Below, piece after piece: positions 1,067-39,872 of a stretch of 40,441 nt of DNA. This DNA comes from a virus (Duplodnaviria > Heunggongvirae > Uroviricota > Caudoviricetes). Position 1 is the first letter of the stretch; every line of letters begins with the position of its first letter. The stretch covers positions 1-40,441 of the IMG/VR virus record IMGVR_UViG_2531839530_000005; one strand, given 5' to 3'. The position numbers and the translations under genes were made by a program. Below the pieces are notes generated by a model. That model made no database searches, was not told the origin of the DNA, and saw nothing but the letters and a program-made list of their open reading frames with translations.

Positions 1067-1100
1067 TAAAAAGAGACCGAACACGATTCCTGTTTTCGCC
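1067..1100. repeat. Prophage attachment-site copy (left junction): AAAAAGAGACCGAACACGATTCCTGTTTTCGCC
   Basis: Imperfect direct repeat of the sdsR 3'-end sequence at 39839-39872; first 14 nt match the native sdsR terminator, remainder diverged. Confidence 0.6.
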
Positions 1101-1397
1101 AACAAATAACAAAATCTTTTAGAATTAATGTGTTAAATAAATTCATGCTCATCTTTTAATCCCTAACACATACCATTACATATTAATACATTCAATTAGT
1201 TACCATTTTTTTCGAGTTTTTTAGAGAAATTTTCGGGAATATTTCAGGTCAATCCATGCATACACAAGCAATTCCTGTATTGAATAATTCCGTAGCAATT
1301 ATGTAAAATCATCTCCGGCTGATTTTCATTCAAACTCGCGCTATCGAACGTCCATCAGCCAGCCGTGGCACGTTCTTGCATACGACATGCTACGGTT

Positions 1398-1952
1398 TCA
1401 TTTATCTCCCACCGGAAACCTCTTATACAAAGTCGATATGCCAACATCATAGATGATCGCTACCTTCAGGCGAGGAACTCCTGATGCAATTAATCGTCCG
1501 GCCTGTGCCCATTGTTCTGGTGTAAGTTTGGGACGACGTCCACCAATTCGTCCCTGTGCGCGAGCAGCTTCCAGTCCAGCTTTTGTTCGTTCAACAATCA
1601 GTTCTCGTTCCATTTCAGCCAGGGCCCCCATCACATGAAAGAAAAAACGCCCCATCGGTGTGCTGGTATCAATAGCATCCGTCAGGCTGCGAAAATTAAC
1701 GCCACGTTCGCGCAACTCCTCAACCAGAATGACCAGATGCCGCATACTACGCCCCAGCCGATCCAGCTTCCAGACAACCAGAGTGTCACCTGCCGATAAT
1801 GTCCTGAGCAGTTTTTTCAGTCCCGGCCTTTCGGACTTTGTACCGCTTATCTTGTCTTCAAAAATCAGCTCGCATCCTGCACAGTTCAACGCATTACGTT
1901 GTAGATCGGTATTCTGGTCATTTGTTGATACGCGTACATAGCCAATAAGCAT
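1398..1952 (-). CDS. pin: Serine DNA invertase of the Pin/Gin/Hin family
   Basis: N-terminal catalytic motif MLIGYVRVSTNDQ and C-terminal HTH (GVPRLKVAIIYDVGISTLYKRF); start taken at internal Met. Confidence 0.85.
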   Translation of the reverse strand: MLIGYVRVSTNDQNTDLQRNALNCAGCELIFEDKISGTKSERPGLKKLLRTLSAGDTLVVWKLDRLGRSMRHLVILVEELRERGVNFRSLTDAIDTSTPMGRFFFHVMGALAEMERELIVERTKAGLEAARAQGRIGGRRPKLTPEQWAQAGRLIASGVPRLKVAIIYDVGISTLYKRFPVGDK

Positions 1953-1978
1953 GGTAGATCTCCCTGACAAAAGCAGGA

Positions 1979-2371
1979 ATGATGCCATTTGCTCGTTATT
2001 TCTGCATTTTCATAAACGTTGGTTTGGGAGAAGCGGCTAAAAGGAATGTAGGGACAGGGGCGAATCAGATACCTGATATGGGTAGCTTCACGCTTTCTGT
2101 TTCAGGTACTGGATATCAAAAATTACCATCAGGTTTTATTCTTCAGTGGGGCTCAATCGGCGCACCAGGCATTGCACAGGATGTAGTAACCCATTTCCCG
2201 ATTGCATTTCCAAACAGATGTCTGCGTGTTTTGGTCTCACAAGACTACACACCAGATAGCGGGGATGTTGGTTATATTGCCTGTGCAGGTTTTAGTCCCG
2301 ACCCGGTTAAATTTATATCCAGAGCCAGTACTCCTGGCCTCGGCGCTTCATTTTTAGCGTTAGGCTGTTAA
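1979..2371 (+). CDS. Tail-fibre C-terminal variable cassette (silent, inverted relative to the main tail-fibre gene)
   Basis: ORF translation has tail-fibre tip character; begins at the crossover site (encodes FINVGLGE); opposite orientation to tail fibre 4285-5433. Confidence 0.4.
2007..2032. promoter_or_regulatory. Invertase crossover site (gix/pix/hix-like 26-bp dyad)
   Basis: TTTTCATAAACGTTGGTTTGGGAGAA, reverse complement TTCTCCCAAACCAACGTTTATGAAAA, matches the recalled TT..AAACC-NN-GGTTT..AA pattern; lies beside the invertase gene at the start of the tail-fibre cassette. Confidence 0.5.
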
Positions 2372-2392
2372 TTTAGCTATATGGAGTTAAAA

Positions 2393-2614
2393 ATGAATTA
2401 CATATATTCCGCGACTACAAACTCTTTCTATCCGCTGGAGATGAAAGAGGATTACACTCAAGCTGACTCATGGCCAGATGATGCTGTTGAAGTGCAACTG
2501 GCACATGCCAACGGCGGATCTGTGCGTGGGATTTACAACCATGCTCAGTATCTTGATAAACGCAGAGAAATGATGCAGTGGTGGGCGGATTGGCTTGATG
2601 AAAAGGGGGAGTGA
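2393..2614 (+). pseudogene. Chimeric remnant: tail-fibre-assembly (Tfa) N-terminus fused in frame to the 3' end of a P4-type tyrosine integrase
   Basis: N-term MNYIYSATTNSFYPLE is Tfa-like; C-term QLAHANGGSVRGIYNHAQYLDKRREMMQWWADWLDEKGE matches the recalled conserved C-terminus of P4-family integrases including the catalytic Tyr region. Confidence 0.4.
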
Positions 2615-3074
2615 TCCACCTTAACCACTATCGAATAGAACAAAGCCTTGCAATCCAGTGCAAAGCTTTGTGTGTATGAGTTTTTTCTCACATCACCAGG
2701 CAATCATCAAACTCCGTATTCCTGGCGTCATTAATTATGTAAGTGATCACCACGAATATAGCCAGTGCAGAACTGTAACCATCATCATCTTCTGGCAGCG
2801 CTTCCCTTCTCCCGTTATCCAGATTAACCGGGTGGTGCTGAGGATGAGTCCGATATCGCTTGATCCTGAATTCCACATCTATAGCAAAGCGGAAGGATGT
2901 CTCAATGTCGTGGACACACAGTGTTACAGCCACAAATCTATAGCCTAAGAAAGGTTTATTTTGTAATTAAAGAAGATTTTAAAAACCAGATTACTCATTC
3001 ATATAGACACCAATCCCCTACAGTCATAAAATGCCTCTTTTGAATTGCTTTATCTTCATAACAAGAGGTTATTG

Positions 3075-37845: not shown

Positions 37846-37901
37846 TTCAGCCTGGCGGTGTAATGCACCGCCAACGTGAGACAGTTTTTATGACAAAAAT
37901 T

Positions 37902-38096
37902 ATGAGATATGACGATGTTAAACCATGTCCGTTTTGTGGTTGTCCATCTGTTACGGTGAAAGCAATTTCAGGATATTACCGGGCAAAATGCAACGGATGC
38001 GAATCCCGAACTGGCTATGGTGGAAGTGAAAAAGAAGCACTCGAAAGATGGAATAAACGAACTACTGGAAATAATAATGGAGGTGTTCATGTATAA
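37902..38096 (+). CDS. ralR: RalR/Lar restriction-alleviation protein
   Basis: MRYDDVKPCPFCGCPSVTVKAISGYYRAKCNGCESRTGYGG... recalled as matching Rac RalR. Confidence 0.8.
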   Translation: MRYDDVKPCPFCGCPSVTVKAISGYYRAKCNGCESRTGYGGSEKEALERWNKRTTGNNNGGVHV

Positions 38097-38277
38097 AATA
38101 ACTGCCACTATTGAAAAAGAAGGTGGCACTCCTACTAACTGGACAAGATATTCAAAATCTAAATTAACGAAATCAGAATGCGAAAAAATGCTCTCAGGGA
38201 AAAAAGAAGCAGGCGTGTCCAGAGAGCAGAAAGTAAAGCTGATAAATTTTAATTGCGAGAAACTTCTGTCCTCGTGA
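38089..38277 (+). CDS. ydaC: YdaC-like small protein
   Basis: MYKITATIEKEGGTPTNWTRYSKSKLTKSECEKMLSGKKEAG... Confidence 0.55.
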   Translation: MYKITATIEKEGGTPTNWTRYSKSKLTKSECEKMLSGKKEAGVSREQKVKLINFNCEKLLSS

Positions 38278-38377
38278 GTTGCATTATATACAAATTAGAA
38301 CTTCATAGCTGATTATTAAAAATCAACCACACCCGCCAGTATTCTGTATATTTACTGGCGGTCATATCGTAAGAGGT

Positions 38378-38665
38378 ATGGCAATGAATCTTGTGACACT
38401 CAAAACGTGGGGAAAACTCAGATATCCGGATAACCCACCATCAATATCAACGCTGAGACGATGGGCAAGGAATGGAAACATTTATCCTGCACCTGAACTA
38501 CACGGGAGGAGTTACAGGGTGGTTCCGGAAGCTTTCTATATCAACCCAAATAAGGTTGATACCGATATAACACACCATCAGCCTAATGGGCGACAAGGGA
38601 GAGACAGTCCGTTACTGGAGAAGTTAAAACATGCAGCGGAAAAAATACGATCCCAATTTGCCTAA
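38378..38665 (+). CDS. Excisionase (Xis-like)
   Basis: Small basic protein immediately upstream of, and overlapping, the integrase gene; STLRRWARNG motif. Confidence 0.6.
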   Translation: MAMNLVTLKTWGKLRYPDNPPSISTLRRWARNGNIYPAPELHGRSYRVVPEAFYINPNKVDTDITHHQPNGRQGRDSPLLEKLKHAAEKIRSQFA

Positions 38666-39707
38666 AAACTTAACATATCGAAGGAGGGACAAAGCATATT
38701 ACTGGCGCAACCCTCTGACGAAAGAAGAATTTACACTAGGTAAAATTTCAAGAAGAGATGCAGTAGCGCAGGCAATTGAAGCAAATCATTATATATACAA
38801 AAACTACTCTCCTGCTGCCTTAATTGAAAAACTAAAAGGGTTCGACTCATTTACTATGGCAGACTGGATTGAACGTTACAAAACGATTCTTATAAGGAGA
38901 AAAGTGTCCAGAAATACTTATAAAATTCGGGTAAATCAACTGGAGACAATAAAAGAAAAATTAGGAGGAGTTTTACTGACAGAAATAACCACTCGCCATA
39001 TTGCCGAGTTTCTTGATTTGTGGATTGAAGGAGGGAAAAACACGATGGCAGGATCAATGCGTTCTGTGTTATCTGATATGTTCCGCGAGGCCATTGTTGA
39101 AGGACGTATATCTCAAAATCCAGTAACGCCAACAAGAGCACCGAAAATAGTAGTTACAAGAGAACGGCTGAAACTAAAGACATACAACTGCATCAGGGAG
39201 GCAGCAGATCAACTTCCGACATGGTTCCCATTAGCTATGGACTTAGCCCTTGTAACAGGACAACGTCGCGAAGACATAACAAATATGCGGTTCAGTGAGA
39301 TTTATGATGATCGTCTCCACATCAGGCAAATTAAGACAGGAATGATGATTGCTATCCCCCTGTCACTCAGCCTTCCTGTCGCTGGTTTACGACTTGGTAC
39401 AGTAGTTGAACAGTGCCGCATGGTAAGTAGGGGGGATTATCTAATCAGTGCCGGGATTAGAAAAAACAGCCCTGACGGCAGCATTCACCCGGACGGCCTG
39501 ACAAAGAAATTTGTCGCAGCCAGAAAATTAACAGGTATCCAGTTCAGTGAAAACCCACCAACTTTTCACGAGATCAGAAGCCTGGCTGGACGATTGTACA
39601 AAGAAACATGTGGGGAAGAATTTGCTCAACGTCTACTTGGCCACACATCGGAGAAGACAACAAAAATGTATCTTGATGAGAGAGAAAAAACGTACTTACT
39701 GCTCTGA
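38631..39707 (+). CDS. Lambda-family tyrosine integrase
   Basis: Arm-binding N-terminus ([27 protein letters not shown]), catalytic region [12 protein letters not shown]...[17 protein letters not shown]. Confidence 0.85.
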
Positions 39708-39838
39708 TTTTAACGTAAATGGATTGTTAAATGTGTTTTGGTTGTGATATAACCAAAAAAGACCGGAATACAGAAATTCGAGTAAATTTCGAGTAATTTC
39801 GGGGAGACGTTTGCAACTAATTGATTTTAAATACAATT

Positions 39839-39872
39839 AAAAAAAGACCGAATACGATTCCTGTATTCGGTC
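39839..39872. repeat. Prophage attachment-site copy (right junction) overlapping the sdsR terminator
   Basis: AAAAAAAGACCGAATACGATTCCTGTATTCGGTCC; direct repeat of 1067-1100 with 3 mismatches in the shared core. Confidence 0.6.

Follow-up and report, generated by a model that had tools for sequence, protein, structure and literature searches.

An apparently defective mosaic prophage, most probably inserted by site-specific recombination at the sdsR terminator of Escherichia coli

In Salmonella enterica, the last 23 bp of the small RNA (sRNA) gene ryeB, also known as sdsR, were described in 2008 as a site where phages attach, at a hot spot for insertions (Balbontin et al. 2008, J Bacteriol 190:4075, according to the summary given in PMC7380047). 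A published survey of 500 prophages also lists ryeB as a phage target and places sRNA genes beside 19% of the Escherichia coli integration sites, and a catalogue of islands includes the Citrobacter prophage Cfr111.52.RyeB with the attachment site (att) duplication ACAGGAATCGTATTCGGTCTCTTTTTAT (PMC10111431). Here we describe an element of 38,771 bp found in the viral record IMGVR_UViG_2531839530_000005, the whole 40,441 nucleotides of which we refer to as the window. We read the element (window 1094–39864) as a prophage, and on the sequence comparisons given below we put the probability at about 0.93 that it arose through recombination of a phage attP with a bacterial attB in the terminator of sdsR by a lambda-type integrase (Int). 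An earlier note on this DNA had mentioned the ryeA/sdsR locus as a reported insertion hot spot, in agreement with what has been published for Salmonella, and our own literature search for explicit accounts of E. coli prophages at sdsR or between pphA and yebY returned nothing specific. The event we describe is real but of an already known kind, and the attachment site is not new.

Both ends of the window are host DNA, with yebW and then pphA (277–933, minus strand, from the RefSeq annotation of matching genomes) on the left and yebY (40100–40441, minus strand, by annotation) on the right, these last two being the flanking genes named in the earlier note. When window 1094–39864 is excised, the yebW–pphA–sdsR–yebY locus of E. 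coli K-12 is restored: the joined flanks (1–1093 plus 39865–40441) are colinear with K-12 BW25113 with one mismatch and no gaps in 1,670 bp, and the 110 bp around the core match K-12 exactly. This alignment to the K-12 pphA–yebY region, which the earlier note had proposed as a check, placed both junctions and, together with an attP that is contiguous in free phage DNA, it bears out the suggestion that a prophage sits in the 3' end, or terminator, of sdsR. A scan of the window for transfer RNA (tRNA) genes found none.

A repeat search of the window identified a terminal direct repeat of 37 nt (1062–1098 and 39833–39869, 86% identity) with a spacing of 38,771 bp, which overlaps the last ~23–28 bp of sdsR, the end of this gene being at 39839. 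The earlier note had given this as a ~33-bp repeat at 1067–1100 and 39839–39872, and while the repeat itself is real, the register was off by one base and should be 1068–1100 against 39839–39871, where 28 of the 33 positions are identical. The terminal repeat is the joint longest direct repeat in the window and no outlier in length, as another (D8) is also 37 nt with 81% identity, and it might be argued from this that the repeat is due to chance or is the target duplication of a transposable element, in which case the arrival of the island would be unrelated to sdsR. We consider this extremely improbable, as the K-12 locus is recovered once the sequence between the repeats is taken out, attP is contiguous in free phage DNA, the ends of the element carry an Int and excisionase (Xis) pair but no transposase, and the two copies show the hybrid pattern of polymorphisms expected of a reciprocal exchange between attP and attB.

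These polymorphisms can be followed base by base when the two copies are compared with the unoccupied K-12 site (AAAAAGAGACCGAACACGATTCCTGTATTCGGTCC, which in the longer stretch of the BW25113 locus reads ...AACAGATAAAAAGAGACCGAACACGATTCCTGTATTCGGTCCAGGG...). The left junction consists of AAAAAGAGACCGAACACGATTCCTGT followed by TTTCGCC, with a host match of 26 nt up to position 1093 rather than the 14 nt of host-type sequence described in the earlier note, and the right junction consists of AAAAAAAGACCGAAT followed by ACGATTCCTGTATTCGGTCC, with the host match running from 39854 on. Relative to the empty attB, attL (1068–1100) has the host G at 1073, the host C at 1082 and a phage T at 1094, and attR (39839–39872) has a phage A at 39844, a phage T at 39853 and the host A at 39865. 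When aligned with the empty K-12 site and the phage attP, attL is host sequence to 1093 and phage sequence from 1094, and attR is phage sequence to 39853 and host sequence from 39865, with the interval ACGATTCCTGT in between (39854–39864). Because attL and attR could be compared in this way with both the empty K-12 attB and the contiguous attP of free phage, we place the predicted strand exchange inside the 11-bp ACGATTCCTGT (1083–1093 / 39854–39864), in the terminator-loop region, and not within AGACCGAA as had been suggested earlier. In most of the non-lysogens listed, the segment equivalent to 39838–40000 differs from the window at two positions (98.8% identity over 163 nt), as expected if the A at 39844 and the T at 39853 came from the phage, and C is therefore the usual E. 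coli allele at 1082.

The position of the interval within the terminator also offers a possible explanation for how the site is recognised. The terminator stem is GACCGAAYAC/GTATTCGGTC with the 7-nt loop GATTCCT, and the 11-bp interval is made up of this loop and two bases on either side. Lambda-family integrases use a 7-bp overlap between inverted core sites. By homology with lambda Int, the two stem arms are probably the inverted core-type Int sites and the loop GATTCCT the 7-bp overlap, with the phage attP (AAAAAAAGACCGAATACGATTCCTGTTTTCGCC) appearing to mimic the last ~26 nt of sdsR.

We used the predicted attP, running from the int side through 39864 and then from 1094 onward, as a query against a phage collection. 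It was contiguous beside the integrase gene in PP818812.1 (phage vB_Apl-pPE4), with 91.7% identity over 697 nt and the core AAAAAAAGACCGAATACGATTCCTGTTTTCGTC, and the Int proteins of this phage and the window are 98% identical. The attP was likewise contiguous, and with the same arms, in the IMG/VR contig UViG_2690316286_000019, and the Salmonella record ZC-S1_prp (circular, 19.6 kb, with a 73% identical Int) has AAAAAGAGACCGAATACGATTCCTGTTTACGG with the same core and arm repeats. It should be noted that the protein search of genome contigs with Int identified two close relatives, and that the cross-genus support consists of one Salmonella phage record and the Citrobacter entry in a paper supplement.

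Several other records are of interest with regard to this attP and its target. PP818812.1, deposited as an Actinobacillus pleuropneumoniae phage, is unique among sequenced free phages in having this int and attP, but the stated host looks doubtful because the attP mimics the sdsR terminator of enterobacteria and has 92% identity with prophage DNA from E. coli. An identical 31-bp attP core (AAAAAAAGACCGAATACGATTCCTGTTTTCG) is found in IMGVR_UViG_3300009036_000075 (L010, positions 716–747) between wholly different arms, where the tyrosine integrase fragment (105–647) is essentially unrelated to the window Int (28% identity over 57 aa) and where an acyltransferase_3 gene lies near the core, as it does in the window; such a core is to be expected if the site serves more than one phage lineage. 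Finally, CP182556.1 (L006 2700–2760), which is labelled Shigella flexneri, has a 95% identical int beside a variant sdsR terminator (AGACCAACATGATTCCTGTATTGGGTCC) in which the loop GATTCCT is unchanged and both stem arms differ, with SdsR scoring only 81 bits. This may be a mislabelled Escherichia lineage, or else the phage arm may have changed along with that of the host.

The recombination proteins are encoded next to the right junction. Int (38631–39707, plus strand) is a tyrosine integrase of the lambda type with 358 aa, in which Pfam recognises the arm-binding (PF09003), central (PF22022) and catalytic (PF00589) domains, all above cut-offs, and the whole protein can be aligned with lambda Int structures (E 1.4e-71). 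R212, K235, H313, R316, H338 and Y347 are found at the lambda catalytic positions, where they align with R212, K235, H308, R311, H333 and Y342 of lambda Int. The xis gene (38384–38665, plus strand; Pfam Exc PF07825, E 6.5e-14) overlaps the start of int, and this int–xis pair adjoins the junction. A motif scan located three tandem copies of AAATT(T)CGRG with a 10-bp spacing in the P arm (39775–39803, plus strand) and two copies of A(A/T)TT(T)CGRG in the P' arm (1208–1237, plus strand), with all five in one orientation. The P-arm copies are kept in pPE4, the IMG/VR contig and Salmonella ZC-S1_prp, the P'-arm copies are kept in the free-phage attP, and we regard all of them as candidate arm-type Int sites. 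The P arm also contains a partial second copy of the left core half at 39754–39773, ~85 bp upstream of the core (AAAAAAGACCGGAATACAG compared with AAAAAAAGACCGAATACGA), which is kept in the free phage, the IMG/VR contig and the Salmonella relative and which may either serve as an additional Int site or be left over from an older att.

The same site can be followed through the complete genomes of E. coli, where it is uninterrupted in 5,189 of 5,426. The int–xis pair is present in 228 of these genomes and is contiguous with sdsR in at least 214, as only 14 genomes overall have a second matching place, and the locus is interrupted in ~4% of complete genomes, nearly all of them beside this integrase. 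A further two genomes in which SdsR follows directly after int were found by protein search. With sRNA genes beside 19% of E. coli integration sites and this site interrupted in ~4% of genomes, the view expressed in the earlier note that the target is an unusual one was overstated.

This distribution also has a bearing on when the prophage arrived in the strain represented by the window. There is about an even chance that this strain acquired the prophage in its integrated form, by inheritance or else by transduction or conjugation followed by homologous recombination in the pphA and yebY flanks, in which case the junctions record an older event. The near-identical junctions and int in ~228 complete genomes are in keeping with this, as is strain 300709 (Mozambique, stool), where the flanks are 100% identical and the prophage 99.9% identical but with a different internal deletion, a pattern which points to vertical descent followed by decay. 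Such a history concerns timing and is compatible with Int-mediated insertion, as the junctions would still require an attP × attB event at the sdsR terminator.

The consequences for the host genes depend on how the locus is divided by the insertion. As the earlier note had recognised, the right copy of the repeat is continuous with a full-length sdsR on the minus strand (39938–39839; Rfam 118 bits, model positions 1–100 of 100), and RyeA, also known as SraC, is matched on the plus strand at 39835–39979 (Rfam, 179 bits). The SdsR promoter, seed region and 5' stem arm are host sequence and the 3' stem arm and U tract are phage sequence, with the phage-supplied end amounting to at least 15 nt, and up to 26 nt depending on the exchange point in the interval. 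The hybrid SdsR terminator has a folding energy of -15.8 kcal/mol, which is the K-12 value, with an unbroken run of seven U, and a terminator was called at 39873–39845; the attL copy alone gives no fold (-4.9 kcal/mol, z 0.17). SdsR would remain intact in the lysogen through the 3' stem arm and U tract which the phage supplies on integration.

With sdsR restored in this way, the antisense ryeA is necessarily split and pphA is uncoupled from the sdsR promoter. RyeA is 261–270 nt long, with 3' ends at +261 to +270 (PMC6610125), and the T-run of the ryeA terminator is at 40063–40069, from which, counting along the empty site, the start of ryeA can be placed near window 1030 (1029–1031). The first ~64 nt of the host ryeA would then lie at 1030–1093 (plus strand, the start being approximate) with a sigma-70 promoter just upstream, and the distal ~205 nt of the host gene, down to the terminator, lie behind the phage int at 39865–40069 (plus strand; placed using the Rfam RyeA match, the sequence and PMC6610125) instead of their own promoter. 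The insertion would cut ryeA ~64 nt past its start and move pphA 38.8 kb from the sdsR promoter. It has been reported that transcription of pphA depends mainly on polymerase reading through from the sdsR promoter, and that sdsR is subject to interference from the transcription of ryeA (PMC6610125), and both of these links are physically broken in the lysogen. In Salmonella, lysogeny by PhiW104 was reported to lower ryeA and raise ryeB, as summarised in PMC7380047, and by analogy we infer that the expression of RyeA, SdsR and pphA is altered here.

We therefore raise, as a tentative suggestion which we hold to be possible but somewhat doubtful, that lysogeny at sdsR is a natural rewiring of the SdsR/RyeA/pphA circuit. 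The detached sigma-70 promoter of ryeA would fire into the phage P' arm, antisense to pin, the body of ryeA would lie behind int, possibly under a phage promoter-like site, and pphA would be left without sdsR read-through. If this were true, the ~4% of E. coli strains with such prophages would have a silent pphA and raised levels of SdsR, which acts as a toxin in the growth phase and represses tolC and mutS, and this would be a lysogenic-conversion effect that outlasts the decay of the prophage. Lysogens, including those with decayed prophages, may thus differ from non-lysogens in SdsR-dependent regulation.

Two further observations concern ryeA. A consensus scan found the promoter-like sequence TTTGCA-16-TACAAT in the phage arm (39810–39837, plus strand), directed toward the ryeA body, which we put forward only as a hypothesis of low probability; we rejected it as a conserved surrogate ryeA promoter, the -10 being TGCAAT in the IMG/VR relative and the Salmonella arm having a TATAAT that is placed differently. 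The 5' end of the Rfam RF00101 consensus (AauUAAAAAaAGaCC, positions 1–15) is closer to the phage arm AATTAAAAAAAGACC (39835–39850) than to K-12 AGATAAAAAGAGACC, and RyeA scores 179 bits in the lysogen against 175 bits in K-12, which suggests that many RF00101 seed sequences carry phage-derived DNA at the 5' end.

The earlier note had described a complete set of phage genes, and int, xis, both att sites and the genes for immunity, replication, lysis, terminase, portal, baseplate and tape measure are indeed present as full-length open reading frames (ORFs), with close relatives of the structural module having been sequenced as phages (vB_EcoM-611R5). An intact and inducible prophage that releases infectious particles after SOS induction is nonetheless very unlikely, because a deletion and a nonsense codon hit essential structural genes and completeness can no longer be maintained. 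Comparison by blastn with two close relatives showed that 3.9 kb is absent from the window (L004 14219–18119, L005 23770–27669), with the loss of the C-terminal third of the major-capsid-like protein, of the genes for the head–tail connector, neck terminator and DUF3383 sheath, and of most of the tail tube. The deletion junction has an 8-bp microhomology (GTTACCCG, 13895–13902) and was absent from all 5,426 complete E. coli genomes. What remains is a capsid/tail-tube fusion ORF (13817–14551, minus strand, identified by BLASTP and the blastn map) in which residues 1–219 of a 313-aa DUF2184 major-capsid-like protein are joined to the last 26 aa of a DUF3277 tail tube protein. Translations of the window and of strain 300709 also show that Gln82 has been changed to a stop in the Gp24-like head ('cement') gene (14563–15069, minus strand), and the invertible tail-fibre segment is rearranged and holds gene fragments.

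Judged by its sequence, the prophage is a defective deletion derivative which is predicted to be unable to build capsids or tails or to produce virions on its own. No damage is apparent in Int, Xis, the two att cores or the arm repeats, and the element may still be able to excise. The prophage of strain 300709 has a different deletion of ~10.8 kb in which the baseplate-to-neck genes are gone (window 5586–13894 compared with L002 5586–7007), and the prophage lineage is therefore decaying independently in these sister strains.

Some points weigh against the interpretation of this element as an Int-mediated insertion at the sdsR terminator, or against parts of it. The argument for its integration and excision is a comparative one made from DNA, and the strain may have acquired an already-integrated prophage via homologous recombination of the flanks, two histories between which the sequence cannot discriminate. 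Exactly where cleavage takes place within the 11-bp interval is deduced, as is the function of the AAATTTCGRG repeats as arm sites, and for the effects on RyeA, SdsR and pphA expression we extrapolate from promoter mutants of K-12 (PMC6610125) and from PhiW104 in Salmonella. Among the 5,426 genomes, neither the Gp24 nonsense codon nor the deletion junction is seen outside the window, and conceivably they may be assembly errors.

The element as a whole is a mosaic in which early, immunity and lysis genes of a Rac-like lambdoid kind are combined with a contractile-tail morphogenesis module. The order of the early, regulatory and lysis genes is lambda-like according to annotation and Pfam, with int–xis–recombination–kil, divergent CI/Cro, replication, Q-like, lysis and terminase genes, and the description of the prophage as lambdoid in the earlier note holds for int–xis, recET, immunity, replication, the Q-like gene and lysis, but not for the morphogenesis module, which is contractile and related to those of 611R5 and SEN34. 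In place of a lambda-like non-contractile tail and head we found genes for baseplate J, spike and DUF2612 proteins, and the relatives have a DUF3383 sheath.

At the left end of the phage is a 196-aa ORF for a Pin/Gin-type serine DNA invertase (1398–1988, minus strand; Pfam Resolvase and HTH_7), annotated in strain 300709 as pinE at 1398–1952. This is followed by a rearranged tail-fibre and invertible-segment region with a gp53-like ORF (1979–4285), assigned from Pfam and the RefSeq annotation of strain 300709, which is 99.9% identical here. According to the same annotation, this region holds fragments of tail-fibre-assembly, integrase and LexA-like genes (2393–2885) and, also supported by Pfam, an acyltransferase_3 gene (3045–4094), the product of which could modify surface polysaccharide. 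The relatives L004 and L005, which are at the same site, have no match to 2034–5092.

The contractile-tail module (4285–13813, minus strand) includes genes for the tail fibre, DUF2612, baseplate J, spike and baseplate proteins, a tape measure with lytic transglycosylase, and the tail chaperone, following the annotation of strain CFS3292. The late module is 98.5% identical to that of the CFS3292 prophage, which is at the same site, 97.6–97.8% identical to the induced phage vB_EcoM-611R5 in the matching segments, and ~82% identical to Salmonella phage SEN34. Beyond the deletion, the genes for DUF2213, a minor head protein, the portal (DUF1073) and the large and small terminase subunits (15073–20575, minus strand) are apparently intact, with ORF lengths equal to those of annotated homologues.

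The lysis cassette (21655–22943, minus strand) consists of holin, endolysin and Rz-like genes, as mapped by offset from the strain 300709 annotation. Further along the minus strand are an ORF6N (antirepressor-like) gene (23784–24359, Pfam), with Rfam matches to the C4, IsrK and c4-a1b1 antisense RNAs directly upstream (24394–24596), and a DUF1133 Q-like antiterminator gene (24616–25290, Pfam). We note that the C4/IsrK–ORF6N combination represents an antisense-controlled module of the P1/P7 or Gifsy-1 type within a Rac-like prophage. A hokD/sok type I toxin–antitoxin module is found at 26616–26939 (minus strand; Rfam sok at 26769–26939 with 101 bits, hokD by annotation).

A Rac-like replication and immunity region (29692–32494) has a ydaV-like ATPase gene, a replication gene and ydaT by annotation, together with genes for a Cro-like HTH protein (31736–31978, minus strand) and a CI-like HTH protein (32075–32494, plus strand), both identified by Pfam HTH_3 and annotation. 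The early leftward-type operon (33346–37845, plus strand; Rfam and annotation) begins with a DicF-like sRNA (33346–33397, plus strand, Rfam DicF) upstream of kilR (33569–33790), and continues with recE (34410–37043) and recT (37036–37845), these three genes being annotated on the plus strand. The annotated ralR toxin gene lies within 37902–38273 (plus strand), with the RalA antitoxin sRNA opposite at 38095–38273 (minus strand; Rfam, 219 bits).

The case described here confirms that the sdsR terminator functions as an attachment site in E. coli, just as it does in Salmonella and Citrobacter, and useful corrections include the exact crossover interval and the defective state and mosaic nature of this copy. 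The closest described systems are PhiW104 and the other ryeA/ryeB elements of Salmonella enterica which, in the summary of PMC7380047, have the same target, the last ~23 bp of ryeB, internal to ryeA, and share with the window prophage both the reconstitution of the sRNA 3' end and the replacement of the 5' part of ryeA by phage sequence. They differ in that the host of the window prophage is E. coli and this copy is defective, and it should be noted that the likeness is drawn from the summary in PMC7380047. In the Citrobacter freundii prophage Cfr111.52.RyeB, the duplication ACAGGAATCGTATTCGGTCTCTTTTTAT corresponds on the complementary strand to ATAAAAAGAGACCGAATACGATTCCTGT, which is the same stretch of the SdsR 3' end, and its att block shares the ...ACGATTCCTGT end boundary with the window, but it comes from another genus and its flanking arms are unlike those of the window phage. 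The phage vB_Apl-pPE4 and contig UViG_2690316286_000019 share a 98% identical Int, the attP core, the arm repeats and the adjoining invertase/tail-fibre arrangement, but unlike the window prophage they are unintegrated genomes, and pPE4 (47.5 kb) was compared around int and attP.

For other parts of the element the nearest relatives lie elsewhere. The Rac prophage of E. coli K-12 shares the early set of recE, recT, kilR, ralR/RalA, ydaT and a ydaV-like gene, but the late genes of the window are of the contractile-tail type. Rac integrates at ttcA with a different integrase. The terminase-to-baseplate module is shared with vB_EcoM-611R5 and SEN34 (~97% and 82% DNA identity, respectively), but the early region of 611R5, which encodes a DNA polymerase and a helicase, is unrelated, nothing in this phage matches the window int, and it retains the 3.9 kb deleted in the window. 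HK022 Int is ~41% identical to the window Int, which has the three-domain structure and catalytic residues in common with lambda and HK022. The attachment sites in tRNA and transfer-messenger RNA (tmRNA) genes (Williams 2002, as cited in PMC3603311) likewise use the hairpin-forming end of an RNA gene, with the displaced part carried on attP, but the target of the window prophage is of another kind, a Rho-independent terminator belonging to the gene of an Hfq-dependent sRNA, with a second sRNA gene on the opposite strand.

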